DNA of 64,000 bases, taken from contig CAYSXR010000001.1 in NCBI GenBank assembly GCA_964435035.1, forward strand, positions 144,192 to 208,191. Direction: 5' to 3'. Position numbers and translations under genes: made by a program. Position 1 is the first letter of the stretch. Each line of letters opens with the position of its first letter. Source of the stretch: an uncultured Gammaproteobacteria bacterium. GTDB lineage: Bacteria > Patescibacteriota > Patescibacteriia > Magasanikbacterales > UBA922. The notes under the pieces are model-generated. The model did no database searches. It was not told the origin of the DNA and was given only the letters and a program-made list of their open reading frames with translations. Positions 16,575-49,375 of the stretch are shown here, piece after piece.

Positions 16575-16647
16575 TGACCCCGGTGGGGATCGAACCCACG
16601 ACCATTGGCTTAAAAGGCCACTGCTCTACCAGCTGAGCTACAGGGTC
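16575..16647 (-). tRNA. tRNA-Lys (anticodon UUU)
   Basis: Manual fold of the reverse complement gives a 7-bp acceptor stem, a GGTTCGATCC T-arm, and anticodon loop CU-UUU-AA. 73 nt, no encoded CCA. Confidence 0.85.
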
Positions 16648-16654
16648 TTAAATT

Positions 16655-16736
16655 AGTTCATAGCTAATAGCAAGAAAGTTCATAGGAAAATACAAATTCG
16701 TATTTCCATTGGCTATCCATCTATTGGCTATGAACT
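16655..16736. repeat. Palindromic intergenic element (arms AGTTCATAGCTAATAG / CTATTGGCTATGAACT); homologous copy at 34224-34298
   Basis: A 16-bp inverted repeat with one mismatch. The internal segment cataggaaaatacaaattcgtat is shared with 34239-34260 (aataggaggaaaatgcgaatcggtac). It lies in the divergent region between tRNA-Lys and the ATPase gene. Confidence 0.5.
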
Positions 16737-16794
16737 ACGAGAGACGCGAATATGATATACTAAGTAAACATAAAAGTCAAGTAAACTTTATCTC

Positions 16795-19470
16795 ATGAAA
16801 AAACAAGATTTTCATTCATTAAGTATCGCACATTCGCTCGATATTTTAAAGAGCAGTAAACAAGGCATCACTCATGAGGAGGCACGCCGACGACTGCAGG
16901 TCAACGGTAAAAATGAAATTCCCTCGGGAGATCGGGATGTTACTGGTTGGAAAATCTTTGGTGAGCAATTTGCAAGTCCACTTATTATTATTCTGATTGT
17001 TGCAACAGCAATCAGTTTTTTGCTCGGCGAATGGGTCGATGTAATGGTGATCGGTATAACTATCGGAGTAAATGTATTGGTTGGGTTTATTCAAGAATAT
17101 CAGGCAAATGCAGCACTTAAAAAACTGAAAAACATGGTGACGTATAATGCGACTGTAATTCGAAAAGGAGAATCAATGCGCATACCAAGTCGGGAAATAG
17201 TAGTAGGGGATATCATGATTATTCTTGCTGGGGACAAAATTCAAGCTGATGGTCGAGTAATTGAAGTGTCTGAATGCGAAGTAAATGAGTCTGTTCTCAC
17301 TGGTGAAGTAGAACCACAGAAAAAAATAAGCAATACGGTTCTCAAGAAACATATTCCCATAGCAGATCGAATGAATATGGTGTACCGTGGTACAGTCGTT
17401 ACTCGCGGGCGTGCACAGGTGGTAGTGACTGCAATTGGTGGGTCTACTGAAATTGGAAAAATCGCTGAGATGGTTGGAAGTATGGATGAGGAGTCTACTC
17501 CGTTGCAAAAACAAATTTCAAAATTAGGGAAAACATTAGGTGTATTGGTGGTAGTTATGTGCACAGGCATTCTCATGCTGGGATTTTTTTTACAATCTGA
17601 ACATAGTGAAAAAGGAATTGAATTATTTAAGACAGCGGTCGCAGTTGCAGTGGCTGCTATTCCTGAAGGATTGGCAATTTCAATGACTATTATTCTTGCA
17701 ATCGGAATGAAAAATATTCTCAAAAGAAAAGCGTTGGTCCGGAAATTACTTGCCGCAGAAACACTAGGTTCGGTTTCGGTGATTTGTACAGATAAAACAG
17801 GTACCTTGACTGAAGGAAATATGTCAGTCGTAAAAATAGTCACATCCCGTGCAGTATTTGGTGCATCAGATTTTATTGGTAAAGAGATAGGCGATGATTC
17901 TCTGGAACATGACGCGAGATATGCACTCAAGCTAGGAATACTCTGTAATGATGGGATGATTGAAAATTATACTAAGCCAGAAAGCGAATGGACAGTATCT
18001 GGAAATCTTACTGATTCCGCACTCATACGTTATGGTGCAAAAATAGGGTTATATAAGACTGAACTCGATCATGTATACGAACGCTTATCTGATATTCCGT
18101 TTGATAGTAAGAAGAAATACATGGGGGTATTAACTAATGAAAGCACTTCTCGGCTGGTGATTATGAAGGGTGCCCCTGAAAAAATGTATTCACGTGTGCG
18201 TTCGTATCAAGCTGAAGGAAAAGTATATGCGTGGGGTAAAAAAATTGAAGAGTATATTAAAGAAAAAGAAAGAGCACTTACAGGGGAAGGACTGCGAGTC
18301 ATCGGGGTGGCGTATAAAGAAACATATTCAGGAAAAAGAGTAGTAACTGAACATGATTTTTCTGACTTGGTATTTGTAGGATTGATTGCGTTTGCAGATC
18401 CACTACGGTCAGACGTACCGAAGACTGTTCAGGCTGCAAAGAAAGCTGGAATTCGGGTTATTATGATGACCGGAGATCATGCAGTGACTGCACATACGAT
18501 TGCGCAAAGTGCGGGAATAGGCGGACGTTTAGAGCGAGTTTGTGAGGGGGTTGAATTAGATCTATTATCTGATCGTGAATTGGAAGAAAAAATTAAAAAT
18601 ACTTCAGTATTTGCACGGGTTGAACCAAAACATAAAATGAGAGTAATCCAGACACTTCAATCAGAGGGGCATGTAGTCGCTATGACGGGGGACGGAGTAA
18701 ATGATGCTCCAGCACTTAAAGCTGCTGATATTGGGGTTGCAGTAGGGTCAGGAACTGATGTGGCAAAAGAAATTGCTGATGTAATTTTATTAGATAATTC
18801 ATTTACGACGATTGTGTCATCAGTCGAAGAAGGAAGGGGGATTTATCAGAACATTAAAAAAGTGGTGTTATATTTACTTTCCAGTAGTTTTTCCGAAGTA
18901 TTGTTGATTGCTTCAAGTATTATCGCGGGCATGCCACTACCAGTACTTCCAGTGCAGATTTTGTGGGTCAATTTGATCCAAGATACCTTTCCGGTAATTG
19001 CACTTGCCTTTGACCGTGGGAGTACACAGGTTATGGAAGAGCGTCCGCGCAAAAGAAATGCACCTATTATTGATCCTGAAATCAGGACCATTATTATTGC
19101 AAAAACAATTTTTGCGAATATTCTTTTATTTGGAATGTTTTTCTATTTTCATACCACAAGTGACGATATCGCACATACTCGCACCATCATGTTCCTCGCG
19201 TTTGCAGTGAATTCGCTGTTCTATATTTATGCAATTAGGGATTTAAGAAAACCAATGATTAAAATGCGATGGTTTGATAATCACTATCTCACGGCTGCGG
19301 TAATTTTTGGGTGGACGATGTTACTTCTTGCTACCTACGTCGCGCCATTCCAGAAAATTTTACACACGGTCCCACTGGGTGTGAATGAGTGGATCATATT
19401 GCTCGGATTCGGTGTAGCAAATTTGTTATTTATAGAAATACTCAAAGTAGTGATGAATAGAAAAAAGTAA
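16795..19470 (+). CDS. P-type cation-transporting ATPase (P2-type, Ca2+/Mg2+-like)
   Basis: DKTGTLT phosphorylation motif, TGDGVNDAPAL hinge motif, and about 10 TM helices in 891 aa. Confidence 0.9.
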   Translation: MKKQDFHSLSIAHSLDILKSSKQGITHEEARRRLQVNGKNEIPSGDRDVTGWKIFGEQFASPLIIILIVATAISFLLGEWVDVMVIGITIGVNVLVGFIQEYQANAALKKLKNMVTYNATVIRKGESMRIPSREIVVGDIMIILAGDKIQADGRVIEVSECEVNESVLTGEVEPQKKISNTVLKKHIPIADRMNMVYRGTVVTRGRAQVVVTAIGGSTEIGKIAEMVGSMDEESTPLQKQISKLGKTLGVLVVVMCTGILMLGFFLQSEHSEKGIELFKTAVAVAVAAIPEGLAISMTIILAIGMKNILKRKALVRKLLAAETLGSVSVICTDKTGTLTEGNMSVVKIVTSRAVFGASDFIGKEIGDDSLEHDARYALKLGILCNDGMIENYTKPESEWTVSGNLTDSALIRYGAKIGLYKTELDHVYERLSDIPFDSKKKYMGVLTNESTSRLVIMKGAPEKMYSRVRSYQAEGKVYAWGKKIEEYIKEKERALTGEGLRVIGVAYKETYSGKRVVTEHDFSDLVFVGLIAFADPLRSDVPKTVQAAKKAGIRVIMMTGDHAVTAHTIAQSAGIGGRLERVCEGVELDLLSDRELEEKIKNTSVFARVEPKHKMRVIQTLQSEGHVVAMTGDGVNDAPALKAADIGVAVGSGTDVAKEIADVILLDNSFTTIVSSVEEGRGIYQNIKKVVLYLLSSSFSEVLLIASSIIAGMPLPVLPVQILWVNLIQDTFPVIALAFDRGSTQVMEERPRKRNAPIIDPEIRTIIIAKTIFANILLFGMFFYFHTTSDDIAHTRTIMFLAFAVNSLFYIYAIRDLRKPMIKMRWFDNHYLTAAVIFGWTMLLLATYVAPFQKILHTVPLGVNEWIILLGFGVANLLFIEILKVVMNRKK

Positions 19471-21377: not shown

Positions 21378-21406
21378 AAAGACCCTGTAAAAGGGGCTTT
21401 TTTTAT
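21378..21406 (+). terminator. Probable rho-independent terminator after pyk
   Basis: aaaagaccctgtaaaaggggcttttttta. Confidence 0.5.
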
Positions 21407-21472
21407 ACACAAAATTGTTTAAAAATAACTGAAAAAGAGGTATACTATATCTGTGTTTGAAAACTATGACAC

Positions 21473-24400
21473 ATGACTAGATTAACATTTTATCGAAGAC
21501 TTTCAATTGTCTCAGGTTTAGTATTGGTATTACTAAACCATTTTGCGTTTGGTTTTTTGGGATTTTTTATTCCAGTCGCAAAGGCCGATGCGATAACATG
21601 GGTAGGTCCATCAACGGGTTATTGGGATAATCCAACAAATTGGAGTAGTGGCACTATACCAACTGCTTCAGATGAGGTGATAATCTCAGGGGACGACATG
21701 TTTATATTAGCAACATCAACTATTAATTTTGCTTCGCTTACTCTTGCGGGTCCTGATGTGCGTTTCAGTCTGTTGGGGGGTATTGGAACTGGAGGTGACC
21801 TTACGATCTCTGAGAGTTTGTTTATACAATCCACGTCAACACGTCAGACGATCAGTGGGACTTTAACAATTAATGATGGGGTGATGCAGCATCTACAAAA
21901 CACTTCAACAACGTTATATAAGCTTGATTTTGTGGCGGAAAATATTGTTATCGAGCCGGGCGGACATGTACGAGTGGATAATGAGGGTTCACCGGGAGGT
22001 GAAATAGGAGAAGACGGGTATGGAAATGGAGGGGGTGATGGAGATTCAAATATAAGTGCTGGTGCAGGTGGAAGCAATGCTGGGACCGGAGGATCGAGTA
22101 GTTCAGGAAACTATGGAGGGTTTTCAACCTGTACTTTTTCTGATGTTGGACCATCCTATGGCGGAAGTGGGGGAGGCGGAAGTGCTACCTCTACTGGAGG
22201 GGATGGGGGAGGATTTGTGCGTCTTGAAGCAAATAATACATTTACGATAAATGGACGTATTACCGCAGACGCTGATCATACTTCGGGGCAGACTGCAGGC
22301 GAAGGTGCGGGGGGTGGATCTGGAGGAACTATTTATCTAGTCGCTGATACGATTAGCGGAGTTCCAGAAGCTCCAATTTCTGCTCGTGGGGGAAATAGTT
22401 TTGATGCAAATGGAGGAGCTGGAGGTGGTGGGTGTGTCCGCTTACAATATACCACAACAAGTACCATCGATGGTGCAAATATTATTGTTGATGGTGGAGT
22501 TGGTTTTGAAAACGGTGGTGCTGGAGTTGCACTGGTAGAAAAAGAAGATCAGTCAATTCGAAAAATGTATGTAACTGCAACAACAACACTTAATTATGGA
22601 GTTGGACAGCTTTATAGCACTGCTGGTACAAATTTTATTTCCTTATCCGGCGCTGAGGAACTCACGACCTTGTCAGTCTCAACTTCTTCTGTATATATCA
22701 TTGGAGATTTTTTAGGTGCAAGTGAACTCACACTTACGGGGGCTACTCCATTTCAAGGCAGTAGTCCATCAGGTACCGTACGAATTCAGGGTGACGTAAA
22801 ATTAAAGCTGTCTTCAGGGGCAAGTATTGAGGATGTAACTCTGGAACTGTATCACGAAGATGTGTCTCGGCGTGCGCGTCTCGTAGATCGTGCTACAGAC
22901 GAATCAGCTACTCTTGATATTGTAATTGGTGACCAAGGGACGCTTCTTTTAAATAATTTCAATTCCACAACTCCCTTGATGGTTGAGACATTTACTGTTG
23001 CAGCCGGTGGAGTCGTGACTCATGAACAAAATAGTATCTCACCGGAACAAAGAGAAATGGTGAATATACAGGCTGAAAATATTACCATTGAGAGTGGTGG
23101 ATCTATTAATGTAGCTGGAAAAGGATACAGTGGGGGTAGAGGTTTAGGAGGTAGTGGCGATGGGCTTGGTGGTGGAGCCTATACGTCGAATGTAGGTGTA
23201 GGTGCGGGACATGGTGGAGATGGTACAGCAAATAATCTTGATGGCTCGTCTGCTGGAGCTGGTGGCACATCATATTGTGATGTTTCTAATCCTTCTACTA
23301 TTGGTTCAGGGGGAAGCTCAGGGTTGTTTAGTGGGAGCTTAGGGCGTAGAGGTGGAAATGGTGGGGGGATGGTATGGCTCGTAGCGACAAATACAATTAC
23401 GCTTGCAGGAGATATTTTTGCAGATGGCGAAAATGGGTCGTTTGACTCGTATGCAGGTGAAGAAACTTTTGAATCTATTTCCGGTGCAGGTTCAGGGGGG
23501 AGTGTAAAATTATTTGCTCCCACTATTGGAGGAGCAGGAGAAATTTTTGTAAGAGGTGGAAATAATGGGGTTGATCCAAGTCCGGCTCCTTCAGAATATG
23601 GCGGAGGCGGAGGCGGATGTGTATTGATAAACTATACGTATGACAATTCAGTTGTCACATCAAGTATATATATTACTGGAGGTGGACTTGATGCTGGGGT
23701 CGCAGAAGATGGACAATTGAGTATTGTGGAAGAAAATGAAGTTCCTGAGTTGTTTTTGAATTTTCATAAACCGGAATTTGTAGCTCGAGTTACAAGTACT
23801 ATTATTGATGGAGCTGGTGACCTGGCAGTTTCGGGCGATTATGCATATGTGGGAGGATTGATGGGTTCGAGTTTTGCGATTATCAATATCTCTAGTACTA
23901 CCAATCCGGCCGTAGTAGGAACCATAGAAACTACATCTGATTTGGCAGGTATATATGGAGTCGAGGTTTCGGGTAATTATGCGTATGTTGTTAATAGTTT
24001 TGACAATAGTTTTCGAGTGATCGATATTTCTAGTAGTACCAACCCGACTATTGTTGCAGGGATAGAGTTCGATACACCGATTCCAGAATTAATGAGCATT
24101 GCAGTATTAGGGAATTATGCTTATGTGATAGTAGGAGAAGATGGATACAGTTCACTCCGTGTGATAAATATTTCAAATCCGCTTTCTCCAACAGTAGTCG
24201 GGAGTATCATTAATGATTCTGACTTAGATTTTCTGAGTGATATTGTAGTTTCTGGAAGTTATGCATATGTTTCAACATTAGCAGCACAGTTTTCAATTAT
24301 TAATATCTCAAATCCAAGTTCGCCTGCCGTGGTAGGAAGTGTGCATGATACAACAATCCTTGATAATTCATTTGGTGTCGCAGTATCAGGAAATTACGCG

Positions 24401-27400
24401 TATGTAACTTCAGATGATAATAGTTCTGTTGCAGTTATTGATATTTCTGATCCAGAGAATCCGGATATAGTGAAAGTGGTGACTGGTGGTGAGTCGATAG
24501 TTGATAGTCTTCGGATGATTGTGATTGAGGGAGATTATGCGTATGTGGGAATGATTAGCCCTAATCCAGGAATTGGGATAATTGATATTACAAATCCACT
24601 CACTGCTAATTTTGTAGGGTATATTTTAGATCCAGATTTACTCACTACGCCAGCTAGAATGCAGGTAGCAGAGGGGGTGGTGTATATGACAGATTTTTCT
24701 GAGGATTCATTGAATATATTTAATGTATCACTGCCTTATTCGGTAAATCCTATTGTTCCATTTGATATTTCAGATGGTGATCGAGAAACACTCTCGGTGA
24801 AGGCAGAGTTTGTTCCTGGATCATGCGCGTACAGTGGTACGACATATGCAACGTTTGTTACCTCGACCGCAACATCAACCTATGGGGTTGCAATAGATAA
24901 TTCTGCAGTTGATAATCGAAGAATTAAAGATATTATCATTGACCCAGTTTCTGATTTTCCAATTACACAAGTAACCACCACATGGCACACCTCAGTAGAT
25001 ATTCCCGGTGATGAAGGGGAATATTGTATGTTTATGACTCCTTATGACGGTGAAGATGAAGGAATACGTGTAGCGGGTACGCTATTTGTCGATGATCCAT
25101 TACTCGCCCCAAACGCCCCTTCTCTCTCTGCCACCAAAACTCAAACCTCGATTACGCTTTCTTGGCCTGTGGCAAATGGGGCTAATCATTATGTGATTGT
25201 ATCAAGTATTTCGGGTATTCCTACAGAAACAGATGAAACTTCGGTGACTTACGCGGGTTTGGTAGCAGGGAATGAATATACTTTTCAGGTTAAATCGGTG
25301 GATAATTATGGTAATGAAAGTGCGTATTCAGAAGTATTTCCTGTTACTACTGTTGCACTAGGATCCTCTCCTCAACCCAGTGCACCCCCTCCTCCGTCAG
25401 ACACCACTCCTTCATCAACGACGACTTCAACGGTCTCGAATCCTTCTAGTCTCATTGTTATTAATAGTGGAGCATACTATACCAAATCACGAGAAGTGAA
25501 CGTGTTATTTAATACTGATTTTACGTCGGCGTATATGCTCGCAGACACTTTTGATTTTTCAGGAAAGATATACAAACCAATCGTTTCCTCAACAACCTAC
25601 ATACTCACTCCAGGAGACGGGGAAAAAAGAATTTATGCTCGTTTTAGTAATAATTATGGTATTTATGATGCGTATGATGTGATTGTGCTTGATACCGTGC
25701 CACCGAGCCAACCTACTATTAATGCAATTAGTTCTCCTGATTTTGTTCTAAAAACTGAAGGAGTGTATGGGCGAAAGAATACGAGTAGTACTGTGCGCAT
25801 CAAACCAACACTTGGAGGTACTGCTGAGCCAGGAAAACGAATTATGATCACTGTCTCCTATGGAGGAACAAATATGGTGATGATGATGTTAGCTGCAGTA
25901 GAAACATACTACACCACTGCAGACAGTAATGGAAATTGGTCGTTTACGTTTCCGAACGAACTTCAAAATACGTATTATACTATTTCGGTACAAACACAAG
26001 ATGAAGCAGAAAATAACTCAAGTGCAGTAGAAATAGAGCTTGACTTACGTAGTCTGGAGACTCTTCCTTGTACTATAAATTGTGAACCATTAGACGAACC
26101 TCCTCTAGAGGAGCCCCCTGAAGATCTGCTGCCAGTCGAAGAGCCATTAGACGAACTTCCTCCTATTGAAACAGCTGAAGAGATTCCTTCCTGTACGATT
26201 GATTGTGGGGGAGAAGAATCTTCACCTGTAGATACGGGAGGAGAGAGTTCAGGTACTGAAGAAGAAAATACAACTGATGCTACGAGTGGAGGTGATACAG
26301 AGGGTAATGTAGACAATAGTTCAAATGAACCAATAGGCGAGCAAGTTATTTCGAGTATTACTGATTCAGTGTCTATTATTTCAGATACAATTGAAACTTT
26401 TTTTACTGAAGTTGGTAACTTATTACAAGAGATACCTATGGTGCGGGGGATAGTAGAAACTGCATCAGTTGCAGTTGAAAAAACGAGAGAAGTTATTGAT
26501 AATCCAACAATTGAAAAAAGTAATGAAGTAATTGCTGCCCCTATAATCGCTGTAGCTGCAGCAGCAAACGTCGCAGTTGGCGGGGCAGGTCTTCTATCAC
26601 AAGCCATGTTGTATCTTCGTCTTATTTTCTCTCAGCCACTACTTTTACTTAAATTGAGAAAGCGTAAAAGGTGGGGTGTGGTATTCAATGCATACACCAA
26701 ATTACCACTTGATTTAGCAACGGTTCGTCTAGTAAATGGAAAAAGTGATTCAATTATAAGAACACAAGTGACTGATGCAAAAGGTAGATATTTTATGGTT
26801 GCTGAAAATGGTGTATATCGACTTGAAGCAAAAAAGGATGGGTTTGGAACTAATGTTAACGTGACTACGGAGGATTCAGCGTTTCCAAATGTGTACCATG
26901 GAGAAGAGTTGGAATTAGCAGAGGAATCGAATAATCTTAATTACAATATCCCACTCGAACCTATCGTAGAAGAAAAATCAAATACGCACGTGCTCCGAGA
27001 ATATGCGAGGAAAGCTACTCATAAAACGGTTAGTTTGATCGGAGCGGTGGCAACCATTGTTTCGCTGATTATTTCTCCGAAGCCATGGATCACTGCATTG
27101 CTTGTATTCCATATTGTCCTGTATAGCCTCATGAGGCGCCTTGCTCATAAAAAGATCAAAGGAACCTTTGGTTTAGTTACTGATAAAAAAACAGGTAAAG
27201 AGATTGGTAAAGTGGTAATCCGTGTTTTTGATGCAGCGTACAATAAGCTAGTTGAAACCGGAGTTACAGATTCAAAAGGTAGGTATGCAATTCTGGTAGG
27301 TCCAAGTATCTACTATATTACTGCAGAAAAAGAAGGTTTTATTACCTATCAATCACCAACGATAGATTTTTCAAGTGAGAAGACGGATGGTCTCGGAGGT

Positions 27401-27466
27401 GTAATTTCTGAGTCATGTAGTTTAAAACCCATTGATTTTCATGAGAAAAATGGCGACACGCTTTGA
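21473..27466 (+). CDS. Giant cell-surface protein (1997 aa): signal peptide, Gly-rich region, LVIVD-repeat beta-propeller, fibronectin-III domain, acidic Pro/Glu linker, and a C-terminal TM plus two carboxypeptidase-regulatory-like (prealbumin-fold) domains
   Basis: Many GNYAYV...VIDIS...NP repeats (LVIVD type). An FN3-like block (SITLSWP...YTFQVKSVDNYGNES). The C-terminal about 380 aa are paralogous to the C-terminus of the next gene. Confidence 0.85.
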   Translation: MTRLTFYRRLSIVSGLVLVLLNHFAFGFLGFFIPVAKADAITWVGPSTGYWDNPTNWSSGTIPTASDEVIISGDDMFILATSTINFASLTLAGPDVRFSLLGGIGTGGDLTISESLFIQSTSTRQTISGTLTINDGVMQHLQNTSTTLYKLDFVAENIVIEPGGHVRVDNEGSPGGEIGEDGYGNGGGDGDSNISAGAGGSNAGTGGSSSSGNYGGFSTCTFSDVGPSYGGSGGGGSATSTGGDGGGFVRLEANNTFTINGRITADADHTSGQTAGEGAGGGSGGTIYLVADTISGVPEAPISARGGNSFDANGGAGGGGCVRLQYTTTSTIDGANIIVDGGVGFENGGAGVALVEKEDQSIRKMYVTATTTLNYGVGQLYSTAGTNFISLSGAEELTTLSVSTSSVYIIGDFLGASELTLTGATPFQGSSPSGTVRIQGDVKLKLSSGASIEDVTLELYHEDVSRRARLVDRATDESATLDIVIGDQGTLLLNNFNSTTPLMVETFTVAAGGVVTHEQNSISPEQREMVNIQAENITIESGGSINVAGKGYSGGRGLGGSGDGLGGGAYTSNVGVGAGHGGDGTANNLDGSSAGAGGTSYCDVSNPSTIGSGGSSGLFSGSLGRRGGNGGGMVWLVATNTITLAGDIFADGENGSFDSYAGEETFESISGAGSGGSVKLFAPTIGGAGEIFVRGGNNGVDPSPAPSEYGGGGGGCVLINYTYDNSVVTSSIYITGGGLDAGVAEDGQLSIVEENEVPELFLNFHKPEFVARVTSTIIDGAGDLAVSGDYAYVGGLMGSSFAIINISSTTNPAVVGTIETTSDLAGIYGVEVSGNYAYVVNSFDNSFRVIDISSSTNPTIVAGIEFDTPIPELMSIAVLGNYAYVIVGEDGYSSLRVINISNPLSPTVVGSIINDSDLDFLSDIVVSGSYAYVSTLAAQFSIINISNPSSPAVVGSVHDTTILDNSFGVAVSGNYAYVTSDDNSSVAVIDISDPENPDIVKVVTGGESIVDSLRMIVIEGDYAYVGMISPNPGIGIIDITNPLTANFVGYILDPDLLTTPARMQVAEGVVYMTDFSEDSLNIFNVSLPYSVNPIVPFDISDGDRETLSVKAEFVPGSCAYSGTTYATFVTSTATSTYGVAIDNSAVDNRRIKDIIIDPVSDFPITQVTTTWHTSVDIPGDEGEYCMFMTPYDGEDEGIRVAGTLFVDDPLLAPNAPSLSATKTQTSITLSWPVANGANHYVIVSSISGIPTETDETSVTYAGLVAGNEYTFQVKSVDNYGNESAYSEVFPVTTVALGSSPQPSAPPPPSDTTPSSTTTSTVSNPSSLIVINSGAYYTKSREVNVLFNTDFTSAYMLADTFDFSGKIYKPIVSSTTYILTPGDGEKRIYARFSNNYGIYDAYDVIVLDTVPPSQPTINAISSPDFVLKTEGVYGRKNTSSTVRIKPTLGGTAEPGKRIMITVSYGGTNMVMMMLAAVETYYTTADSNGNWSFTFPNELQNTYYTISVQTQDEAENNSSAVEIELDLRSLETLPCTINCEPLDEPPLEEPPEDLLPVEEPLDELPPIETAEEIPSCTIDCGGEESSPVDTGGESSGTEEENTTDATSGGDTEGNVDNSSNEPIGEQVISSITDSVSIISDTIETFFTEVGNLLQEIPMVRGIVETASVAVEKTREVIDNPTIEKSNEVIAAPIIAVAAAANVAVGGAGLLSQAMLYLRLIFSQPLLLLKLRKRKRWGVVFNAYTKLPLDLATVRLVNGKSDSIIRTQVTDAKGRYFMVAENGVYRLEAKKDGFGTNVNVTTEDSAFPNVYHGEELELAEESNNLNYNIPLEPIVEEKSNTHVLREYARKATHKTVSLIGAVATIVSLIISPKPWITALLVFHIVLYSLMRRLAHKKIKGTFGLVTDKKTGKEIGKVVIRVFDAAYNKLVETGVTDSKGRYAILVGPSIYYITAEKEGFITYQSPTIDFSSEKTDGLGGVISESCSLKPIDFHEKNGDTL

Positions 27467-27627
27467 ATATAATTACCGAAGAAGTAGAAAAGATTGTGTG
27501 ATGTAGTTAGTATGGTCTATTCACAAGAATATATGGGAAGTATTGATTAGTAGCTGGTGTGAATGTTTAAAAGTCGATTTATTAGTAGAATAAACGTATA
27601 CTTATTAGGGTAATCTATTATTACAAC

Positions 27628-29610
27628 ATGAGTAGTTTGATTAAAAAAATAATTTTCGCAGCTTTTCTTCTGTGGCTTGTGCCTTCAGTAATTTTTGCTT
27701 CAGATAGTAATGGTACAATCAATACAAGTCATAAATATGGATGGGGAGAAAACTTGGGTTGGATTAATTTTGCCCCAACTGATGGGTCGAGTAATTATCA
27801 CGGGCTTACCATTACTGATTCTGCTGTTACTGGCTATGCATGGTCAGAAGCCTATGGCTGGATTAATTTTGCTCCAAGTAATGGCGGAGTAACTAATAGC
27901 TGTACCGGACAACTTGGTGGTTGGGCATGGTCTACACAATTGGGCTGGATTTCCATGAGCGGAGTAACAATTGGATCGACCGGAGAATTTAATGGTGTAT
28001 CAGGTGGAACAACGCTTCCTTCGGGTAGAATTACCTTTGATTGTGATAATTGTGATGTGCGTACTGATTGGATTCCTTGCGCTGAGCGTGAAGAAGAAGG
28101 TGGTGGAGGCCCTCCGCCCACCTGTTCCAATGGCGCGTCAGATTATCCAACCTGTACACCACCCACTCCACCAACCTGTTCTAATGGTGCTTCGGATTAT
28201 CCTACCTGCACACCTCCTCCAGATCCCACCTGTTCCAATGGCGCATCAGATTATCCAACCTGTACACCACCCACTCCACCTCCAGATCCAGTCTGCTCTA
28301 ATGGCGCATCAGACTACCCAACTTGTACGCAGCCACCAGATCCCACCTGTTCCAATGGTGCATCAGACTACCCAGCTTGTACTGCCTCTACCGATGGGGG
28401 TGATGGAGGTACCGGAGAGGGTGATGGAGGTGCTAGTGATGGGGGAGAAAGTGAAGGGGCGGGGAGTAGTGGAGGCGGAGGTGGTGGTGTTGCCACAGAA
28501 ATAATTTCAAATATTACTGATTCAGTTGGGGTAGTGGCTGATGCAACAGTAGCTGTTTTGCAAGATGTAGCAGAAGTGCTGGTTACTATTCCCGGAGTAC
28601 AAACTGTAGTTAATGCGGCCCAAGTTGCTATAGAAAGAACAGAAAAAGTTATTAATAATCCTACGGTTGAAAAAATAGATGAAGCAGTTTCAACTCCAGT
28701 GCTCACAGCAACAGCTGTAGTAAACGTAGTAGTAGGTGGTGCAACATTATTTTCGCAGATTTTAATATTTCTCCGTTTATTGTTTTTGCAGCCCTTACTA
28801 TTATTATTCAAACGTCATAAACAAAAAACATGGGGAACGGTTTTCAATAGTCATACAAAGCAACCTCTTGATTTGGCAATGGTGCGTCTGGTGCATGGAG
28901 AAAATGACACAATTGTACGCACCCAGGTGACTGATGCCCAGGGTCGTTATTTTATGGCTGCAGGAAGTGGTACGTATATTTTGAAGACTACTAAAGAAGG
29001 TTTTGGTCCACATAGTGGAACGCAAGCTGAAGATTCGGTATATCCAAATTTGTATCGTGGAGAAAAATTGGAATTAGTGGACAGAGAAAGTGAACTTAAT
29101 TACAACATCCCGCTTGAACCAGTGTATGAGGCAAAGAGTACTGCTGATATAATCAAAGAATATTCGAGAAAAACATTCCAAAAAACGTTGAGTTTGATTG
29201 GTGCAATTGCAACGGTGGCATCACTGATTATTTCTCCAAACATTTGGATGGCTGCTCTTTTGGTAGTACATCTGCTTATCTATGTGGTCATGAAACGGTT
29301 TGCACAAAAAAAAGTAAAAGGTGATCGTGGAATAGTAGTGGATAGTAAAACTAAAAAACCAATGAAGAAGGTGGTGATCCGTGTGTTTGATAATGCATAC
29401 AATAAATTGGTGGACACTGCAATTACTGATAACAATGGGTGTTATGCGGTTCTAGTGGGTCCTAGTACTTATTATATTACTGCAGAAAAAGAAGGGTATG
29501 CTCCATATCAGTCTGATACGATTGATCTAACGAGTAAAAAGACTAATGGAATTGGAGGTGTTATTACAGAAAACTTCTCTTTGATGTCAGTTGATGAAAA
29601 GAAAAAGTAA
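27628..29610 (+). CDS. Surface protein (660 aa) with signal peptide, GWINFAP repeats, a 5x Cys-containing tandem peptide repeat, a Gly-rich spacer, and the same C-terminal anchor module as the upstream giant protein
   Basis: Long blocks of alignable identity to the C-terminus of the 21473-27466 product (e.g. ISSITDSV...VGGAGLLSQAMLYLRLIFSQPLLLL... versus ISNITDSV...VGGATLFSQILIFLRLLFLQPLLLL...). Confidence 0.8.
   Translation: MSSLIKKIIFAAFLLWLVPSVIFASDSNGTINTSHKYGWGENLGWINFAPTDGSSNYHGLTITDSAVTGYAWSEAYGWINFAPSNGGVTNSCTGQLGGWAWSTQLGWISMSGVTIGSTGEFNGVSGGTTLPSGRITFDCDNCDVRTDWIPCAEREEEGGGGPPPTCSNGASDYPTCTPPTPPTCSNGASDYPTCTPPPDPTCSNGASDYPTCTPPTPPPDPVCSNGASDYPTCTQPPDPTCSNGASDYPACTASTDGGDGGTGEGDGGASDGGESEGAGSSGGGGGGVATEIISNITDSVGVVADATVAVLQDVAEVLVTIPGVQTVVNAAQVAIERTEKVINNPTVEKIDEAVSTPVLTATAVVNVVVGGATLFSQILIFLRLLFLQPLLLLFKRHKQKTWGTVFNSHTKQPLDLAMVRLVHGENDTIVRTQVTDAQGRYFMAAGSGTYILKTTKEGFGPHSGTQAEDSVYPNLYRGEKLELVDRESELNYNIPLEPVYEAKSTADIIKEYSRKTFQKTLSLIGAIATVASLIISPNIWMAALLVVHLLIYVVMKRFAQKKVKGDRGIVVDSKTKKPMKKVVIRVFDNAYNKLVDTAITDNNGCYAVLVGPSTYYITAEKEGYAPYQSDTIDLTSKKTNGIGGVITENFSLMSVDEKKK
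28120..28392 (+). repeat. Coding tandem repeat, 5 copies of about 51-66 bp (peptide CSNGASDYPTCTPPTPP(P)DPT)
   Basis: Direct reading: acctgttccaatggcgcgtcagattatccaacctgtacacc... repeated five times with third-position variation. Confidence 0.7.
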
Positions 29611-29664: not shown

Positions 29665-32600
29665 ATGAAATTGAGTATAAAAAAAGGTAAAAATAAAAAA
29701 AATAGTGCACGAGAATCCGCACATATTTTGTGGTTTGAAGAAATTGGAATTACTGATATTCCATTGGTTGGTGGAAAAAATGCGTCATTGGGGGAAATGT
29801 ATACTGGACTCAGATCAAAAAATATTGCAGTTCCGAATGGTTTTGCAATTACCGCAAAAGCGTATTGGGATTTTTTCGAAGCTCATGGATTAAATAAGAT
29901 AATCAAGAAAGAAATTAAAGGATTGAATGTACTTAAAATTAAAGATTTGAATCGAGTGGGAAAAAAGATACGATCACTCATTATTAACGCAAAATTTCCT
30001 GACGATTTACAAAAAGAAATTATTGAAGCGTACGAATCACTTAAAAAACAAGAAGGAGTAACTCATCTTTCAGTAGCGGTGCGATCGAGTGCAACTGCAG
30101 AAGATTTACCTGATGCAAGCTTTGCGGGTCAGCAAGAAACATATTTGAATATCGAAGGCCATGATGAATTATTGATTGCGGTAAAAAAATGTATTGCATC
30201 TCTATTCACTGATCGTGCGATTTCTTATCGTGAAACCAAAGGATTTGATCACATGGCAGTTGCTCTCTCGGTGACCGTGCAGACTATGGTTCGGTCAGAT
30301 GTGGGAGTCTCAGGAGTAATGTTCACGATTGATACTGAATCTGGTTTCCCTGGAGTAGTGCTTATTAATGCGTCATACGGGTTGGGTGAATATGTAGTCA
30401 AAGGTCAGGTAACTCCGGATCAGTTTTATGTGTTTAAAGAAGGTGTAAGAAAAGGGAAATCAGCAATTATCAGTAGAATCTTTGGTTCAAAAGAAGTGAA
30501 GTTGGTATATGGAAAACGCCTCACTACTCAAAATATTGTTCCGGCTGCTGATCGTCATAGATTGTGTATTTCAGATGAAGATGTGCTCACTCTTGCAAAA
30601 TGGGGGATGGAGATTGAGAAATTTTATAATAAAGCCCAAGATATTGAATGGGCAAAAGATGGTGTTACTGGGAAATTATATATCGTTCAGGCACGACCTG
30701 AAACAGTTCAGTCCCAAGCAAATCATGCGGTTATTGAGTCGTACGAGCTGAAAGAAAAAGGAAAATTAATTGCTCGCGGTATCTCAATTGGACAAAAAAT
30801 TGGGGCAGGTGTCGCGCGTATTATCAATGATCCTCGAGACATGAAGCTGTTTAAAAAAGGTGAAGTATTGGTAACCCGTATCACTGATCCTGATTGGGAG
30901 CCGATTATGCGTCTTGCGAGTGCAATTGTAACTGAACAAGGAGGAAAAACAAGTCATGCAGCAATTGTATCTCGTGAATTGGGAGTCCCTTGTGTAGTGG
31001 GTACCAAACAAGCACGTGCACTGATCAAAACAGGAGTAAAAGTAACGGTTTCGTGTGCTGAAAGCGAAGAGGGGCATGTGTATAAAGGCATGCTTCCGTT
31101 TGAAGTAAAAAAAACCACAATTACTGATATTGCAAAGACCAAGACTAAAATCATGATGAATGTGGGAGATCCGGATCATGCATTTGCATTATCATATTTA
31201 CCAAACGATGGAGTAGGACTTGCGCGCGAAGAATTTATATTTTCTAATTTTATTAGAATTCATCCACAAGCTCTCCTTAATTTTGACAAACTTAAAGATA
31301 AAAAAGCAAAAAAGAAAATTTCTGAATTAACTGTCGGGTACAAAGATAAACGCCAGTACGGAGTGGATAAACTCGCCGATGGTATTGCACGTATTGCTGC
31401 TGCATTCTACCCTCGCGATGTCATTGTACGTCTGTCTGATTTCAAAACCAATGAATACGCCACCTTGATTGGGGGGCTCGAATTTGAACCTAAAGAAGAA
31501 AATCCAATGATTGGTTGGCGTGGAGCTTCTCGGTATTATTCAGAGGAATATAAGACTGCATTTGGTATCGAGTGTGAAGCATTGAAAAAAGTTCGAAGCG
31601 ATTGGGGACTCAATAATGTAATTGTCATGGTGCCATTTTGTCGTACTCCAGAAGAAGGGAAGAATGTATTGAAAACCATGGCGGATTTTGGACTCAAACA
31701 AGGTGAAGATAAATTACAGGTCTATGTCATGTGTGAAATCCCATCAAACGTCATACTTGCAGAAGAATTCGCGAAAATTTTTGATGGATTCAGTATCGGA
31801 TCTAATGATTTAACGCAGTTGACGCTTGGGGTAGATCGTGATTCTGCATTAGTAAGCCATGTGTATGATGAGAAGAATAGTGCGGTAATGACACTGATCA
31901 AGCAGGTGATCAGAGTAGCTCATAAACATAAACGAAAAATTGGAATTTGTGGCCAAGCGCCAAGTGATTATCCAGAGTTTGCTGAATTTCTTGTGCGTGA
32001 AGGAATCGATAGCATCTCACTCAATCCAGATACGGTATTAGCAACACGCGCACGCATTGCAAAGACAGAAAAGAAAGTAGGTATGCGTGGCGGTACCACG
32101 AATCATAAATTTTTGACACTAGTATTTCTACTTGGGGTTTGCTCAGCAAGTATGATACTTCTTGGTGGTGGTTGCGGTGCAATCAAATCTGACAATTCGG
32201 TAAATACAATTACAACAGAATTAAGTCCGGCGCAAGTGAGAGCACAGTTTGAAGCGCGTGCATTGAGTGAGGCAGAAGAGCGTATTGAATCGAAACGAAG
32301 CACAATGACTATCTCCTCGCTAGGGTCATTTAAAGTTTCGTATCCACAAACGTGGGCAGTTGAAGAGCTTTCGAGTGTGCCAGGATATATGTTTTCAAAA
32401 CCTGAATCAAAAGCGCAGGTCGTAGTGGTAAAACAGAAAAAGTCTTCGACTACTGTGTCAGATGGTACTTCCTCCGTAGAGACTGCCGATACAGGTTTGT
32501 CTGCTGGAACAGTTGATAAGAATACTGCAAGCTCATACATCATAGTTGGTGAAAATACGCTAGAAGTCGAATATCGAAAAACTGAAGAGGGAACTGTTCT

Positions 32601-32802
32601 TACTGCAGTACATATTCCTCTTGATGAGGAAGAAGAATTATTTGTGTATGGGACACCAGGAAATGAATTTAATGACATTGTAGAAAGTCTTACGTTCACT
32701 GATCCTGAGGTGGCACCACCTCAAATATTACCAGATGCAGGAGAAGCTTGTATCCATGTAACACCTGATTCGGGTGGAAGTGATGCTGTTAGTTGTTACT
32801 AA
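29665..32802 (+). CDS. ppsA: Phosphoenolpyruvate synthase (pyruvate,water dikinase), continuous in frame with a 239-aa C-terminal lipoprotein-like module
   Basis: The first about 806 aa carry the ATP-grasp, phosphohistidine (GGKTSHAAIVSRELGVPCVVG) and PEP-utilizer (GSNDLTQLTLGVDRDS) domains. An internal ATG at 32083 begins MRGGTTNHKFLTLVFLLGVCSAS...GGGC, a signal peptide/lipobox-like segment, with no intervening stop codon. Confidence 0.85.
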   Translation: MKLSIKKGKNKKNSARESAHILWFEEIGITDIPLVGGKNASLGEMYTGLRSKNIAVPNGFAITAKAYWDFFEAHGLNKIIKKEIKGLNVLKIKDLNRVGKKIRSLIINAKFPDDLQKEIIEAYESLKKQEGVTHLSVAVRSSATAEDLPDASFAGQQETYLNIEGHDELLIAVKKCIASLFTDRAISYRETKGFDHMAVALSVTVQTMVRSDVGVSGVMFTIDTESGFPGVVLINASYGLGEYVVKGQVTPDQFYVFKEGVRKGKSAIISRIFGSKEVKLVYGKRLTTQNIVPAADRHRLCISDEDVLTLAKWGMEIEKFYNKAQDIEWAKDGVTGKLYIVQARPETVQSQANHAVIESYELKEKGKLIARGISIGQKIGAGVARIINDPRDMKLFKKGEVLVTRITDPDWEPIMRLASAIVTEQGGKTSHAAIVSRELGVPCVVGTKQARALIKTGVKVTVSCAESEEGHVYKGMLPFEVKKTTITDIAKTKTKIMMNVGDPDHAFALSYLPNDGVGLAREEFIFSNFIRIHPQALLNFDKLKDKKAKKKISELTVGYKDKRQYGVDKLADGIARIAAAFYPRDVIVRLSDFKTNEYATLIGGLEFEPKEENPMIGWRGASRYYSEEYKTAFGIECEALKKVRSDWGLNNVIVMVPFCRTPEEGKNVLKTMADFGLKQGEDKLQVYVMCEIPSNVILAEEFAKIFDGFSIGSNDLTQLTLGVDRDSALVSHVYDEKNSAVMTLIKQVIRVAHKHKRKIGICGQAPSDYPEFAEFLVREGIDSISLNPDTVLATRARIAKTEKKVGMRGGTTNHKFLTLVFLLGVCSASMILLGGGCGAIKSDNSVNTITTELSPAQVRAQFEARALSEAEERIESKRSTMTISSLGSFKVSYPQTWAVEELSSVPGYMFSKPESKAQVVVVKQKKSSTTVSDGTSSVETADTGLSAGTVDKNTASSYIIVGENTLEVEYRKTEEGTVLTAVHIPLDEEEELFVYGTPGNEFNDIVESLTFTDPEVAPPQILPDAGEACIHVTPDSGGSDAVSCY

Positions 32803-36492: not shown

Positions 36493-36566
36493 CGGGCTGG
36501 ACGGGACTCGAACCCGCAACTTCTGCCGTGACAGGGCAGTGCTCTAACCAGTTGAACTACCAGCCC
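36493..36566 (-). tRNA. tRNA-Asp (anticodon GUC)
   Basis: The reverse complement folds with acceptor gggctgg/ccagccc, a GGTTCGAGTCC T-arm and anticodon loop CU-GUC-AC. 74 nt. Confidence 0.85.
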
Positions 36567-38647: not shown

Positions 38648-38776
38648 ACTTCCTCCTTAAAAAAGTTGTATTGGCAGTGCCACGAGGGCGCGCTGTGCTT
38701 AGTAATGTTGCTGCCACGTAAAGTCGCTACGCTCCTACGTGGCACTCAAAGGCGCTCTGAGAATCGCGCCTTTTCG

Positions 38777-39173
38777 TGGAGATGCCGGGAGTCGAACCCG
38801 GGTCTAGACGGGTTACCCCGATACTCTACATGTGTATCGATGTTTGGTGTTTCGCATACGAATATGAAACATCGAAAAATATCGCATGCTATCGCATGAA
38901 TGGTTTCAACTAACTTCCATACGAACAAAGTTAGTCTACGCTCGAACTAGGGTTGGCACCGTGGATCCACCATCGAGTATCGTGGGTACGATGGTCGTAG
39001 TGATTTAGGCTACAACAGAAGCAAAGCTAGGCATACTGAAAGCTTTCGCTACAGTGTTTTTAGCTCGCTCGAACAAGTTTGCACTTGTGGAATTGCCTAT
39101 TTGTTACAGAGACAGGCACTCTGACATGCATATACAAGATAACAGAATCCATCTATCGAAGCCTGTCATCCCC
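38777..39173 (-). ncRNA. ssrA: tmRNA (SsrA), about 397 nt
   Basis: 5' GGGGAUGACAGGCUUCGAUAG... pairs with 3' ...GGUUCGACUCCCGGCAUCUCCA(CG), giving a 7-bp acceptor stem and a T-arm GGUUCGACUCC. It sits directly upstream of smpB. The tag reading frame is not securely assigned. Confidence 0.8.
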
Positions 39174-46445: not shown

Positions 46446-46655
46446 ACTGCGTTATTTCAAAAGCCCTACATAGGTCTTCGAAATAGCAATCCAGGGGCCC
46501 CATCAGAGAGGATATGTGTCCCTTCTGATGGAGTCCCTGGTCTAGGAGCTCCCACTGTGGCCCGTTCGGGCAATAGTGAGAGCCTTAGGCTCATTACAAT
46601 CGAAGAAGCTAGAACACGTGCCCCTATGAAAGGGGTGTAAACGAGGAGATCAGAA

Positions 46656-48104
46656 ATGATTGACCGCAACAAGAAGAGCAACAAGAAGAGCACGCCCGTG
46701 AAGGGCGGCGCTGCGGCGAACCCGCAGGCGATGGCAACCGTGGCGTCTCACAAGGACGACACGGCTCAGATCGATGTGGTGGTCGAGACCAATCCCGAGG
46801 CCGACAAGGTCGAGGGTGAGGTCAAGGCCGATGAAGAGGCGAAGGTCGAAGAGACCGTCGCCACCGCCCCGACCGAGAACGTCGAGAAGAGCGAGGAGCC
46901 GGCCGTTGTGGTCGACCCCGAGCCCGAGCTCGAGCAGAAGCGGAACTTCCGTAAGGAAGACCTCCGCCTCCGGTACAACGACAACCCGCAGGTGCTGCTC
47001 ACCTCCGCGGATCTCAGCGAAGAGGACAAGGTCCTCATCGGCGAGATCGCGAGCGAGCAGAACCAGGTCGTCCGCGACTATGCCGCGCTGGCACAGGAGC
47101 TGACCGACGAGAAGGACCAGCTCGAGCAGAAGCTCGACGCGACCAACTCCAAGCTGGGGAACGTCACCAACCTCATCGCGACCACGGTCAAGGAGACCGT
47201 GGGACAGGTGGACAAGGAGACGTCGGCCTTGATCGAAGGTCTGAAGATCGAGATCGAGGGCGTCATCGGCAAGGGTAACGGCGTGAAGAACGCCGTCACG
47301 AAGATCGGGGACGATGTCAACAAGGACATCGGCTCGCTCAAGGGTCAGGTCAACGCCAACGCCAAGTCGGTCAACGACAAGGTCGATGGGATGGCCGCGA
47401 TGCTCGGGAAGATCGACGAGAAGATCTCCGAGATCAAGTCCCCGCCGCCCCCGCAGCAGCCGCCGGCTCAGTCCAGCACCACCCCGTCCTCCGGATCCTC
47501 CGGGTGGCCGTGGGTCGTGGCCGTGGGCATCTTGCTCGCGGCCGTGATCGCGGTCTTCCTCCTGAACAAGGATGTGAAGATCGAGGTCCAGGTGCAGCAG
47601 CCGGCGGTGAACACCGTGAAGGGTGTGGTGCCGCCGGTGGTGGACAACGCTCTCGGGGTGACCTCGCAGCAGGTGACCCCGGGTGGACCGGGGAATCCGA
47701 TCGTGCCCACGGTGGTCGGTGCCACGTCCGAGGATCCCTGCAAGGGGAAGGTCGGTGGGGAGCTCGGGTCGTGTGTCCTTCAGCTGGAGAAGTTCCGGCC
47801 GAAGGGGTTCACTGATGCGCACTGGAACACGGTCGTCGAGACCTTCCAGAACGTCATCATGGTCCCCTTGAGCGTTCCGTTCAAGGACATCAAGCACCAC
47901 GACAAGGCCATCGAGCACAACATGAGGAAAGACGCGGCACTGCAGGCGTGCGTCGACGCATACGTCTTGAAGACGGATGATGTCGAGTCGAACGTCCGGT
48001 GTCAGCGGGCGGTCGATTGTCTGTTCACTTCGGTGGACGAGGCAGCACAGTGCTACATGACGCATACGCGCTCGATCACGGGCGTTTTGGTCACTGTCAA
48101 CTGA
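46656..48104 (+). CDS. Island gene 1: bitopic membrane protein (482 aa) with a cytoplasmic 11-mer-repeat/coiled-coil N-domain, one TM, and an extracytoplasmic Cys-containing C-domain
   Basis: Protein-like composition on the + strand versus R/L/D/G-rich junk on the antisense strand. TM WPWVVAVGILLAAVIAVFLL preceded by a PPPPQQPPAQ linker. Confidence 0.65.
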   Translation: MIDRNKKSNKKSTPVKGGAAANPQAMATVASHKDDTAQIDVVVETNPEADKVEGEVKADEEAKVEETVATAPTENVEKSEEPAVVVDPEPELEQKRNFRKEDLRLRYNDNPQVLLTSADLSEEDKVLIGEIASEQNQVVRDYAALAQELTDEKDQLEQKLDATNSKLGNVTNLIATTVKETVGQVDKETSALIEGLKIEIEGVIGKGNGVKNAVTKIGDDVNKDIGSLKGQVNANAKSVNDKVDGMAAMLGKIDEKISEIKSPPPPQQPPAQSSTTPSSGSSGWPWVVAVGILLAAVIAVFLLNKDVKIEVQVQQPAVNTVKGVVPPVVDNALGVTSQQVTPGGPGNPIVPTVVGATSEDPCKGKVGGELGSCVLQLEKFRPKGFTDAHWNTVVETFQNVIMVPLSVPFKDIKHHDKAIEHNMRKDAALQACVDAYVLKTDDVESNVRCQRAVDCLFTSVDEAAQCYMTHTRSITGVLVTVN

Positions 48105-48159
48105 ACCTCAACCCAACTAGTCCGACCTCCCTCGGGAGGTCGGACACAGGAGAACAGAC

Positions 48160-49346: not shown

Positions 49347-49375
49347 TTGACAAACGAGAGTATTTATGCTATACT
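49347..49375 (+). promoter_or_regulatory. Promoter cassette type P (cTTGACAaacgagagtatttatgcTATACTaag) within an AT-rich patch inside the island
   Basis: TTGACA-17-TATACT, highly similar to 46417 and 63780. Confidence 0.5.

Follow-up and report, generated by a model that had tools for sequence, protein, structure and literature searches.

We analysed a 64,000-nucleotide (nt) stretch of contig CAYSXR010000001.1 (hereafter, the window) that contains two adjacent open reading frames (ORFs) on the same strand, gene A (1997 amino acids, aa) and gene B (660 aa), whose products have a C-terminal module in common. Both ORFs were found exactly where an earlier reading of this DNA (the original prediction) had placed them. 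The domain list given there, namely LVIVD repeats and a fibronectin type III (fn3) domain in A, GWINF repeats and five Cys-peptide units in B, and paired prealbumin-like domains, was for the most part confirmed by Pfam and repeat scans (Table 1). The LVIVD region of A scored 107.7 bits against PF08309 (cutoff 20.2) in 6 stretches, with six G(D/N/S)YAYV units at residues 788-1020. It also matched the NCBIfam model TIGR04312 (choice-of-anchor B) over residues 780-914 (51.5 bits, E = 8.8e-14), below the curated cutoff of 100, and is related to choice-of-anchor B without being a member by the curated threshold. Residues 541-729 of A gave a sub-threshold NCBIfam match to gliding_AgmC_N (35.6 bits, cutoff 275). 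Protein B contains three GW(I)NF-type repeats and five CSNGASDYP(T/A)CT units. Its GWINF repeat domain had no Pfam match at E <= 1, and AlphaFold modelling of this domain from 6 sequences reached a mean predicted local distance difference test score (pLDDT) of 44.9, which was too poor for a fold search.

BLASTP aligned residues 1621-1992 of A with residues 288-660 of B (205 of 373 positions identical, 55%; 75% positives; one gap; E = 9e-123), and no other part of the two proteins could be aligned (next best E = 1.5). The two proteins have only this C-terminal module of ~375 residues in common, and their ectodomains are unrelated, as originally proposed. The two peptide pairs quoted in support of that proposal (RTQVTDAKGRYFMVA / RTQVTDAQGRYFMAA and ITAEKEGF / ITAEKEGY) both fall inside the alignment. 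The likeness is not one of low complexity, because stalk, hydrophobic region, beta-sandwich, transmembrane (TM) pair, and second beta-sandwich follow each other in collinear order throughout. The CarboxypepD_reg domain is common, which could suggest that A and B resemble each other by chance, by low complexity, or merely through a generic Pfam domain; this reading was rejected and has practically no probability left, given a collinear alignment of 373 aa that includes the stalk and TM parts outside any Pfam domain, and 24 columns that are invariant across 23 homologs.

The claim that identity is high holds at the protein level but not at the DNA level, where the two modules were 66.7% identical over 957 nt (blastn) and 62% identical when codon-aligned, with 44% at third positions and 80% in the best 60-nt window. 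These low nucleotide and third-position identities indicate that the duplication is old and exclude a recent gene conversion, of which the DNA-level alignment gave no sign. Moreover, a syntenic relative (L001) has separate orthologs of both genes (2014 aa for A and 724 aa for B), and the A/B pair is therefore older than the split from L001. The adjacency and common orientation of A and B would suit a recent tandem duplication or gene conversion, but codon-aligned identity and the L001 orthologs led us to discard this explanation as extremely improbable. A tblastn search over the 64-kb window detected only these two copies of the module.

The module opens with a stalk of ~60 residues in two predicted amphipathic helices, for which both the confidence of the AlphaFold2 (AF2) model and the sequence conservation are low; the VIDNPxVEK motif at its end is better conserved (N 67%, P 89%, V 88%, and E 73%). 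The first hydrophobic region, ~42 residues long, consists of an Ala/Val/Gly-rich half that begins with an invariant Pro and a LRxLFxQPLLLL half (Q101 92%, P102 95%). Five near-invariant basic residues and then W-G (W114 97%, G115 99%) lead to the first beta-sandwich (CPD1), after which a K/R-rich helix continues into a TM hairpin with P249 (97%) in its turn and H/Q260 (95%) in its second helix. A second basic cluster, then (W)G, and then the second beta-sandwich (CPD2) complete the module. The two TM helices originally described correspond to two hydrophobic regions, but the 'second TM helix' is a hairpin of two helices and the first stretch is ~42 residues long. The succession of helix, basic cluster, W-G, and beta-sandwich occurs twice per module, which is thus an internal duplication.

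Both copies scored above the CarboxypepD_reg (PF13620) cutoff of 32.3 bits, with two stretches each (57.1 and 59.8 bits for modules A and B, respectively). The AF2 model of the module contains one helix at residues 87-109 (23 residues), a hairpin (217-247 / 251-272), and two beta-sandwiches with pLDDT values of ~90-96. Foldseek against the PDB returned matches to single domains only (carboxypeptidase D transthyretin-like, CnaB, SdrD-B, and pilin domains), among them carboxypeptidase D domain II and the transthyretin-like domain 5aq0_B (TM-score 0.79 on target), and no PDB analogue of the whole arrangement was found. A profile search of PDB sequences yielded only a chance match to NOMO2 (E = 0.13).

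Table 1. Coordinates of genes A and B, of their module copies, and of the promoter-like sites within the window.
Feature	Position	Strand	Basis
Promoter-like site upstream of gene A, TTTAAA-17 nt-TATACT	21418..21446	+	Consensus scan and sequence; consensus match only
Gene A: signal peptide, ectodomain, and C-terminal module	21473..27466	+	ORF list; 2014-aa ortholog in syntenic L001
A signal peptide, residues 1-39, ...VAKA/DA	21473..21589	+	Hydrophobic segment 10-36; cleavage site by eye
A Gly-rich repeat regions, residues ~150-345 and ~535-735	21920..23677	+	Sequence
A LVIVD repeat region, residues ~760-1105, six G(D/N/S)YAYV units	23750..24787	+	PF08309 and motif positions
A fn3 domain, residues 1216-1289	25118..25339	+	PF00041, 27 bits, cutoff 25
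A Big_13 Ig-like domain, residues 1440-1520	25790..26032	+	PF19077, 35.9 bits, cutoff 27
A acidic Pro/Glu/Gly-rich linker, residues 1527-1620	26051..26332	+	Sequence
Module copy A, residues 1621-1997	26333..27463	+	BLASTP against B, AF2 model, Pfam
Module A predicted helical stalk, VIDNPxVEK at its end	26333..26521	+	AF2 helices 2-31 and 35-56, low confidence
Module A first hydrophobic region, then basic cluster KLRKRKR and W-G	26522..26650	+	Hydropathy, column conservation
Module A first CarboxypepD_reg / transthyretin-like beta-sandwich (CPD1)	26672..26968	+	Pfam; AF2 pLDDT ~90 or more; Foldseek
Module A TM helical hairpin, S-P turn, conserved His/Gln	27026..27136	+	AF2 helices 217-247 and 251-272
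Module A second CarboxypepD_reg beta-sandwich (CPD2)	27161..27427	+	PF13620 best stretch 280-351; AF2 pLDDT 93-96
TATACT hexamer, 25 nt before gene B and lacking a -35 element at 16-18 nt	27597..27602	+	Sequence; not reported by promoter scan
Gene B, 660 aa	27628..29610	+	ORF list; 724-aa ortholog in L001, 79% identical
B G(E)NxGWINF-type repeat domain, residues 25-160	27700..28107	+	Repeats
B Cys-peptide tandem repeats (P)TCSNGASDYPTCT, five units	28112..28382	+	Tandem Repeats Finder: period 54 nt, 4.9 copies; regular expression
Module copy B, residues 288-660	28489..29607	+	BLASTP, Pfam, coordinates
Module B stalk	28489..28677		
Module B hydrophobic region	28678..28809		
Module B CPD1	28831..29127		
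Module B TM hairpin	29182..29295		
Module B CPD2	29320..29583		

The module proved to be widespread. An exhaustive profile search returned 6016 cluster representatives at E <= 1e-3 and 2138 at E <= 1e-30, counted as clusters of proteins at 50% identity; a word-indexed search found 25 relatives, and a scan with one genome per species gave 124 loci confirmed by tblastn. The family definition that we propose comprises the VIDNPxVEK stalk end, A-P...LRxLFxQPLLLL, a basic cluster with W-G, CPD1, an S-P hairpin with H/Q, a second basic cluster with (W)G, and CPD2, all placed C-terminally, and both A and B carry every element of it (profile E = 5.9e-168 and 1.4e-184, respectively). Among the best 150 profile matches (325-3595 aa), the module lay at the C-terminus or close to it; in all 83 locus-encoded proteins (344-3696 aa) it was C-terminal, with 1-172 residues after it. 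The source records with informative names belonged essentially all to Patescibacteria, also known as the candidate phyla radiation (CPR), including Magasanik-, Falkow-, Uhr-, and Buchananbacteria and Parcubacteria. Many other records bear the generic title 'uncultured Gammaproteobacteria', which we regard as a placeholder, and one 'Methylomirabilis' record with a guanine-cytosine (GC) content of 42% is probably mislabelled. The ectodomains were diverse: among 32 members, fn3 was present in 23, Big_13 in 12, and TSP_3 in 7, along with SBBP, FG-GAP, LVIVD, Laminin_G_3, DUF7948, and others. No Pfam or NCBIfam model covered the whole unit when A and B were scanned, only the generic CarboxypepD_reg being recognised, and our literature searches found no description of the module. 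We therefore regard it, as far as the named records go, as a large and unnamed CPR-restricted family with a predicted polytopic C-terminal anchor. C-terminal anchoring of modular surface proteins is a kind of arrangement already known; the predicted polytopic module is an unusual form of it.

Some apparent members consist of the module alone (P0003, P0006, and others), and these were set aside as seemingly truncated gene calls: P0006 matches an ORF of 515 aa, and P0003 corresponds to the last 358 aa of the L001 B ortholog, following a run of N. About 4% of the members have a charged tail beyond the second beta-sandwich that ends in L(K/R)(D/E)IAQ(Y/F)G(G)K(D/E)... (P0016, P0027, P0032, P0048, P0049, P0060, and P0064; L021). 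This end peptide, which looks like a short docking motif, is sometimes preceded by IPKDPxxFDF, is sometimes duplicated, and is missing in A and B.

Comparison with L001 showed that the modules are much better conserved than the ectodomains. The module of A was 86% identical to that of its L001 ortholog and the ectodomain 55%; the corresponding values for B were 91 and 70%. In a neighbour-joining tree of 17 modules, built by a simple method on BLOSUM distances, the clade of B-type modules (B, L001-B, and P0001) grouped with A-type modules in 100% of 300 bootstraps and never with the modules of other GWINF-type proteins, which formed a 100% clade of their own. The B ectodomain is nevertheless 47-63% identical to those of these other GWINF-type proteins, and the Cys-peptide repeats are common to B and P0004. 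Since the tree of the modules conflicts with the relationships among the ectodomains, a module must have been exchanged at least once between A-type and B-type genes, with a breakpoint that was probably in the Gly/acidic linker. Reshuffling of ectodomains and modules by recombination, as first suggested from the two sequences alone, is thus supported by this conflict.

Several other differences were seen at the locus of L001, the closest relative. An extra gene of 1630 aa lies between the A and B orthologs (L001 11265-16157); it encodes many LVIVD-like repeats and no anchor module, and its C-terminal segment ...SSERFKHDIETWNEGLATILELRPVTYK... looks, by eye, like the peptidase S74 (intramolecular-chaperone) end of phage tail fibres. 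In the B ortholog, a run of N (~16700-16800) interrupts the array of Cys repeats, which contains at least 7 copies, compared with 5 in B of the window.

Evidence on what the module does came from the other proteins that carry the B-type ectodomain. We found 69 relatives of the GWINF repeat domain, the majority of which are small (170-240 aa). P0172 combines it with a single TM helix and an RKRRE basic tail; P0181, P0185, and P0200 combine it with an IPTL-CTERM signal (24.6 bits in P0185, Pfam cutoff 20.8), and P0171 with a dockerin (30.5 bits, cutoff 22.9). In other relatives, a Pro/Thr tail is found at the C-terminus. One relative (among P0168-P0236) comes from a record labelled Planctomycetota. 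The GWINF domain thus behaves as a 'choice-of-anchor' domain, joined to TM tails, IPTL-CTERM, dockerin, or the CPR module. As the same type of ectodomain carries recognised anchors elsewhere, the module occupies the anchor slot, and we infer that it functions as an anchor. This agrees with the original prediction of a conserved C-terminal anchor with interchangeable ectodomains, which is further supported by the C-terminal position of the module, its variable partners, and the incongruent trees.

Alternatively, the module could be a cleavable sorting signal, recognised by a dedicated sortase-, exosortase-, or rhomboid-like enzyme and removed on maturation. It sits where relatives of the B ectodomain have IPTL-CTERM or a TM tail, and its first hydrophobic region opens with an invariant Pro and includes an invariant Q-P. 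However, no known sorting signal comes anywhere near its size of ~320 residues with two folded domains. No LPXTG-like motif was found in B, and the only one in A was NPLTA at residue 1041, far from the C-terminus. Neither protein had an IPTL-CTERM or PEP-CTERM match in Pfam or NCBIfam, or a PEP tripeptide. No sorting-signal model was matched above threshold, the strep_LAETG match being 15.2 bits (cutoff 30), and no conserved processing-enzyme gene lies nearby. A sorting signal is therefore very unlikely.

The module does have features in common with choice-of-anchor signals such as LPXTG/sortase, IPTL-CTERM, PEP-CTERM, and a TM helix with a basic tail: it forms the very end of secreted multidomain proteins, its hydrophobic stretch leads into a basic cluster, and the same type of ectodomain occurs with alternative anchors. 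It differs from them in size, as such signals comprise ~30 residues and the module ~320-375, with three or four helices and two folded beta-sandwiches. Moreover, unlike these signals, it has no recognisable cleavage motif or dedicated processing enzyme nearby, and it is confined to CPR according to the named records.

Some module genes of distant relatives had conserved neighbours. Immediately upstream of 37 of the 83 module genes lay X, Y, or both, a pair of conserved genes (loci L027-L076, e.g., L027 7694-9342 and L028 5742-7301), and the module of all 37 was at most ~41% identical to that of A. X encodes a secreted, beta-rich protein of ~220 aa ending in ...GSY(S/T)HTVT(L/F)...P, and Y a protein of ~310 aa with a signal peptide, a C-terminal TM helix, and a basic tail, which matched WxLIP_PGBD below threshold (19.8 bits, cutoff 27.3). 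X and Y may form a surface complex or a pilus-like assembly. Their layout recalls that of the WxL/Csc clusters of Lactobacillales, in which a WxL protein is combined with DUF916/WxLIP (PMC1534035, PMC10599100), as outlined in those reports. It also recalls, in a comparison by description only, the Pam pilus operon of CPR, which is described as encoding donor-strand-exchange pilins together with PapD-like chaperones that have a C-terminal TM anchor (bioRxiv 10.64898/2026.03.03.709456). As described in these sources, neither the WxL/Csc nor the Pam system includes the module. Searches of the 64-kb window with X and Y (tblastn) gave only matches with E >= 0.15, so that no WxL/Csc-type cluster was recognised there, and no conserved partner gene was found next to A and B.

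The charges flanking the hydrophobic regions provided a clue to the topology of the module. Averaged over 221 distinct members, the net charge changed from -1.0 ahead of the first hydrophobic region to +4.8 just behind it; for the hairpin it was +3.4 on the N-terminal side, +0.2 within the turn, and +2.2 on the C-terminal side. According to the positive-inside rule, basic flanks stay cytoplasmic. The ectodomain must be outside, because it follows a signal peptide and is composed of extracellular-type domains. Taken together, these points predict that the first region crosses the membrane once, that the second is a hairpin, and that both beta-sandwiches are cytoplasmic, a placement to which we give a chance of about two-thirds. 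The AF2 model agrees with a single crossing, since its one helix (87-109) adjoins the basic cluster and the Ala/Val/Gly-rich half is little structured; P0172, with its TM helix and basic tail, would represent the same arrangement in minimal form. The anchor proposed originally is thus supported, but the cytoplasmic placement of its prealbumin-like domains, as indicated by charge, had gone unnoticed, and it raises the possibility that the module does more than anchor passively. We consider A and B probably to be Sec-exported surface proteins of a Magasanikbacteria-like CPR bacterium, held in the membrane by a lineage-specific polytopic C-terminal module.

Under this explanation, the signal peptide would export an adhesin-like ectodomain, and the poorly conserved amphipathic helical stalk would lead into the first hydrophobic region, which would span the membrane once, with the invariant cluster of five basic residues as its stop-transfer signal. 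CPD1 would then fold on the cytoplasmic side, no more than 8 residues away from the membrane. A tight helical hairpin would dip out and return, and the second basic cluster and CPD2 would again be cytoplasmic. In this way, the duplicated out-to-in unit of helix, basic cluster, W-G, and beta-sandwich could lock very large ectodomains in the membrane like a rivet that cannot be drawn back through its hole. Being self-contained, the module has been joined to many different ectodomains in the course of evolution.

Several observations weigh against membrane anchoring through cytoplasmic beta-sandwiches. At ~42 residues, the first hydrophobic region could by symmetry be a hairpin as well, which would put both beta-sandwiches outside, and to our knowledge CarboxypepD_reg and transthyretin-like domains are almost always extracytoplasmic. 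The AF2 model has low confidence at module residues 47-83 and a predicted TM-score (pTM) of only 0.36, so that its packing of helices and domains is not reliable; the rivet-like mechanical role is a conjecture; and the conserved polar residues within the helices (R/Q96, Q101, and H/Q260) suggest a role beyond passive anchoring. Lysine content was tried as a test of compartment. It was 2.2% in the ectodomains (1.4% in A and 0.4% in B), 6.6 and 11.3% in the two module domains, which is like the cytoplasmic proteins of the window, and 11.6% in C-terminal tails of >50 aa (vs 2.2% in ectodomains). However, the extra copies of the same fold in the ectodomains of some relatives, which served as the extracellular control, contained 6.7% Lys, not clearly different from 8.3 and 10.6% in the module copies of the same proteins, and the test was dropped.

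In an all-outside topology, both hydrophobic regions would be hairpins and the beta-sandwiches would sit on the outer face of the membrane, where they might bind peptidoglycan or another wall polymer, with anionic lipids or wall polymers as ligands of the basic clusters, giving a combined membrane and wall anchor. Both hydrophobic regions can indeed be divided into two halves of ~17-20 residues with a short turn between them, and the internal duplication favours the same topology for both units. The fold is one usually met in stalk domains outside the cell (SdrD-B, CnaB, and carboxypeptidase D), and some relatives have an extra copy of it in the ectodomain. The 37 module genes of distant relatives that follow X and Y, conserved genes for secreted or anchored proteins of which one has the sub-threshold WxLIP_PGBD match, point in the same direction. 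What makes this topology rather unlikely is that three strongly basic flanks (+4.8, +3.4, and +2.2), conserved across the 221 members, would have to be exported, contrary to the positive-inside rule. In addition, the first region has a turn of only 1-3 residues and a poorly predicted N-terminal half, and its second half has only ~16-19 hydrophobic residues, including R/Q and Q-P. Another possibility, that the module serves for coupling or signalling across the membrane and is no passive anchor, extends rather than excludes anchoring with cytoplasmic beta-sandwiches: a small folded membrane domain with conserved polar residues would link the ectodomain, through the beta-sandwiches, to cytoplasmic partners, in some members with the help of a conserved C-terminal peptide, possibly for force transmission, clustering, or signalling. 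The strong conservation within and near the helices (R/Q96 87%, Q101 92%, P102 95%, G237 84%, and H/Q260 95%), with the juxtamembrane stretch as the most conserved part of the module (mean conservation 0.72), is in line with such a device, as are the higher conservation of modules than ectodomains between the L001 orthologs (86-91 vs 55-70%) and the L(K/R)(D/E)IAQ(Y/F)G(G)K ends found after a charged tail in ~4% of the members. Set against this, there is no partner gene conserved beside A and B, Pfam and NCBIfam scans gave no enzymatic or nucleotide-binding signature, and the conserved polar residues may serve helix packing only. We hold a coupling or signalling device to be a tentative possibility. 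With similar reserve, we can envisage a CPR-specific coupling unit, so far undescribed, in which a small folded membrane domain with conserved Arg/Gln, Gln-Pro, and His/Gln rigidly joins giant host-contact proteins to two cytoplasmic beta-sandwiches (and, in some members, the C-terminal peptide takes part), so that cytoplasmic components could receive or resist an external binding or pulling force.

Among giant surface proteins of other bacteria, the Gli349 and Gli521 'leg' proteins of gliding Mycoplasma mobile offer a parallel by description only, being held by TM helices and coupled to cytoplasmic machinery in a genome-reduced, wall-less/monoderm host; we saw no relationship to them in sequence or domains, and nothing in A and B points to motility. 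The fibrillar adhesins of monoderm bacteria, as described in PMC8286594, are likewise long and modular, with adhesive domains, repeat domains, and an anchor, and their SdrD-B, CnaB, and transthyretin-like (prealbumin-like) stalk domains resemble the beta-sandwich fold of the module. In the adhesins, however, these beta-sandwiches form an extracellular stalk upstream of the anchor, whereas in the module they lie downstream of the first membrane segment, alternate with TM helices, and have a predicted cytoplasmic location (PMC8286594 for the adhesins).

The -10 regions of A and B had been described as similar, and this was barely upheld. GTATACT is present 25-26 nt before the ATG of both genes, and one 9-mer, TGTTTAAAA, is also common to the two 5' regions, but the spacing differs: it is sigma-70-like only upstream of A (17 nt), that of B being 25 nt. 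The similarity is weak overall, and the promoter scan reported fewer promoter-like sites in the region than in shuffled sequence. A terminator-like hairpin with a T-run (~21380-21405, by eye) follows the gene upstream of A and precedes the promoter-like site of A.

By eye, P-type ATPase-like and pyruvate-kinase-like genes lie upstream of the A/B pair and a phosphoenolpyruvate (PEP)-synthase-like gene downstream. The latter ORF (29665-32802, 1045 aa) appears to have an extra C-terminal ~250 residues that open with the hydrophobic segment FLTLVFLLGVCSASMILLGGGCG, and such an extension with a hydrophobic start is unusual for a cytoplasmic PEP synthase. Elsewhere in the window, a sharp compositional island was observed at 46600-55200, with a coding GC content of 0.57-0.67 compared with ~0.40 outside it and intergenic gaps that return to 0.39-0.45. 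It holds five or six ORFs on the + strand, including a 482-aa protein of ordinary composition (46656-48104, 60-67% GC) and Cys-rich secreted proteins with TSP_3 and Dicty_CTDC repeats (52954-55041). The island is not rRNA and may have been acquired horizontally as a cluster; behind it, the GC content is native again in genes for a GT4 glycosyltransferase and Wzy_C. The only Rfam matches above the gathering score in the window were a transfer-messenger RNA gene (38774-39173, - strand; 106 bits) and two transfer RNA genes (16575-16647 and 36493-36566, both - strand).

Members of the CPR/Patescibacteria are thought to live attached to other microbes, and we know of almost nothing, outside Saccharibacteria, about their contact proteins or how the cells hold them. 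The module tags more than 2000 protein clusters, many of them giant proteins with adhesin-type domains, and could help to compile candidates for surface and host-contact proteins in any CPR genome; the unit deserves a family definition of its own. The family also illustrates the exchange of ectodomains on a constant anchor. If the predicted topology is true, transthyretin-like domains would be cytoplasmic and lie between membrane helices, a construction for which we know of no described anchor and which hints at a mechanical or signalling connection through the membrane of such tiny cells. Were the module truly a coupling unit, membership in the family would single out the proteins by which a large share of the CPR attaches to its hosts.

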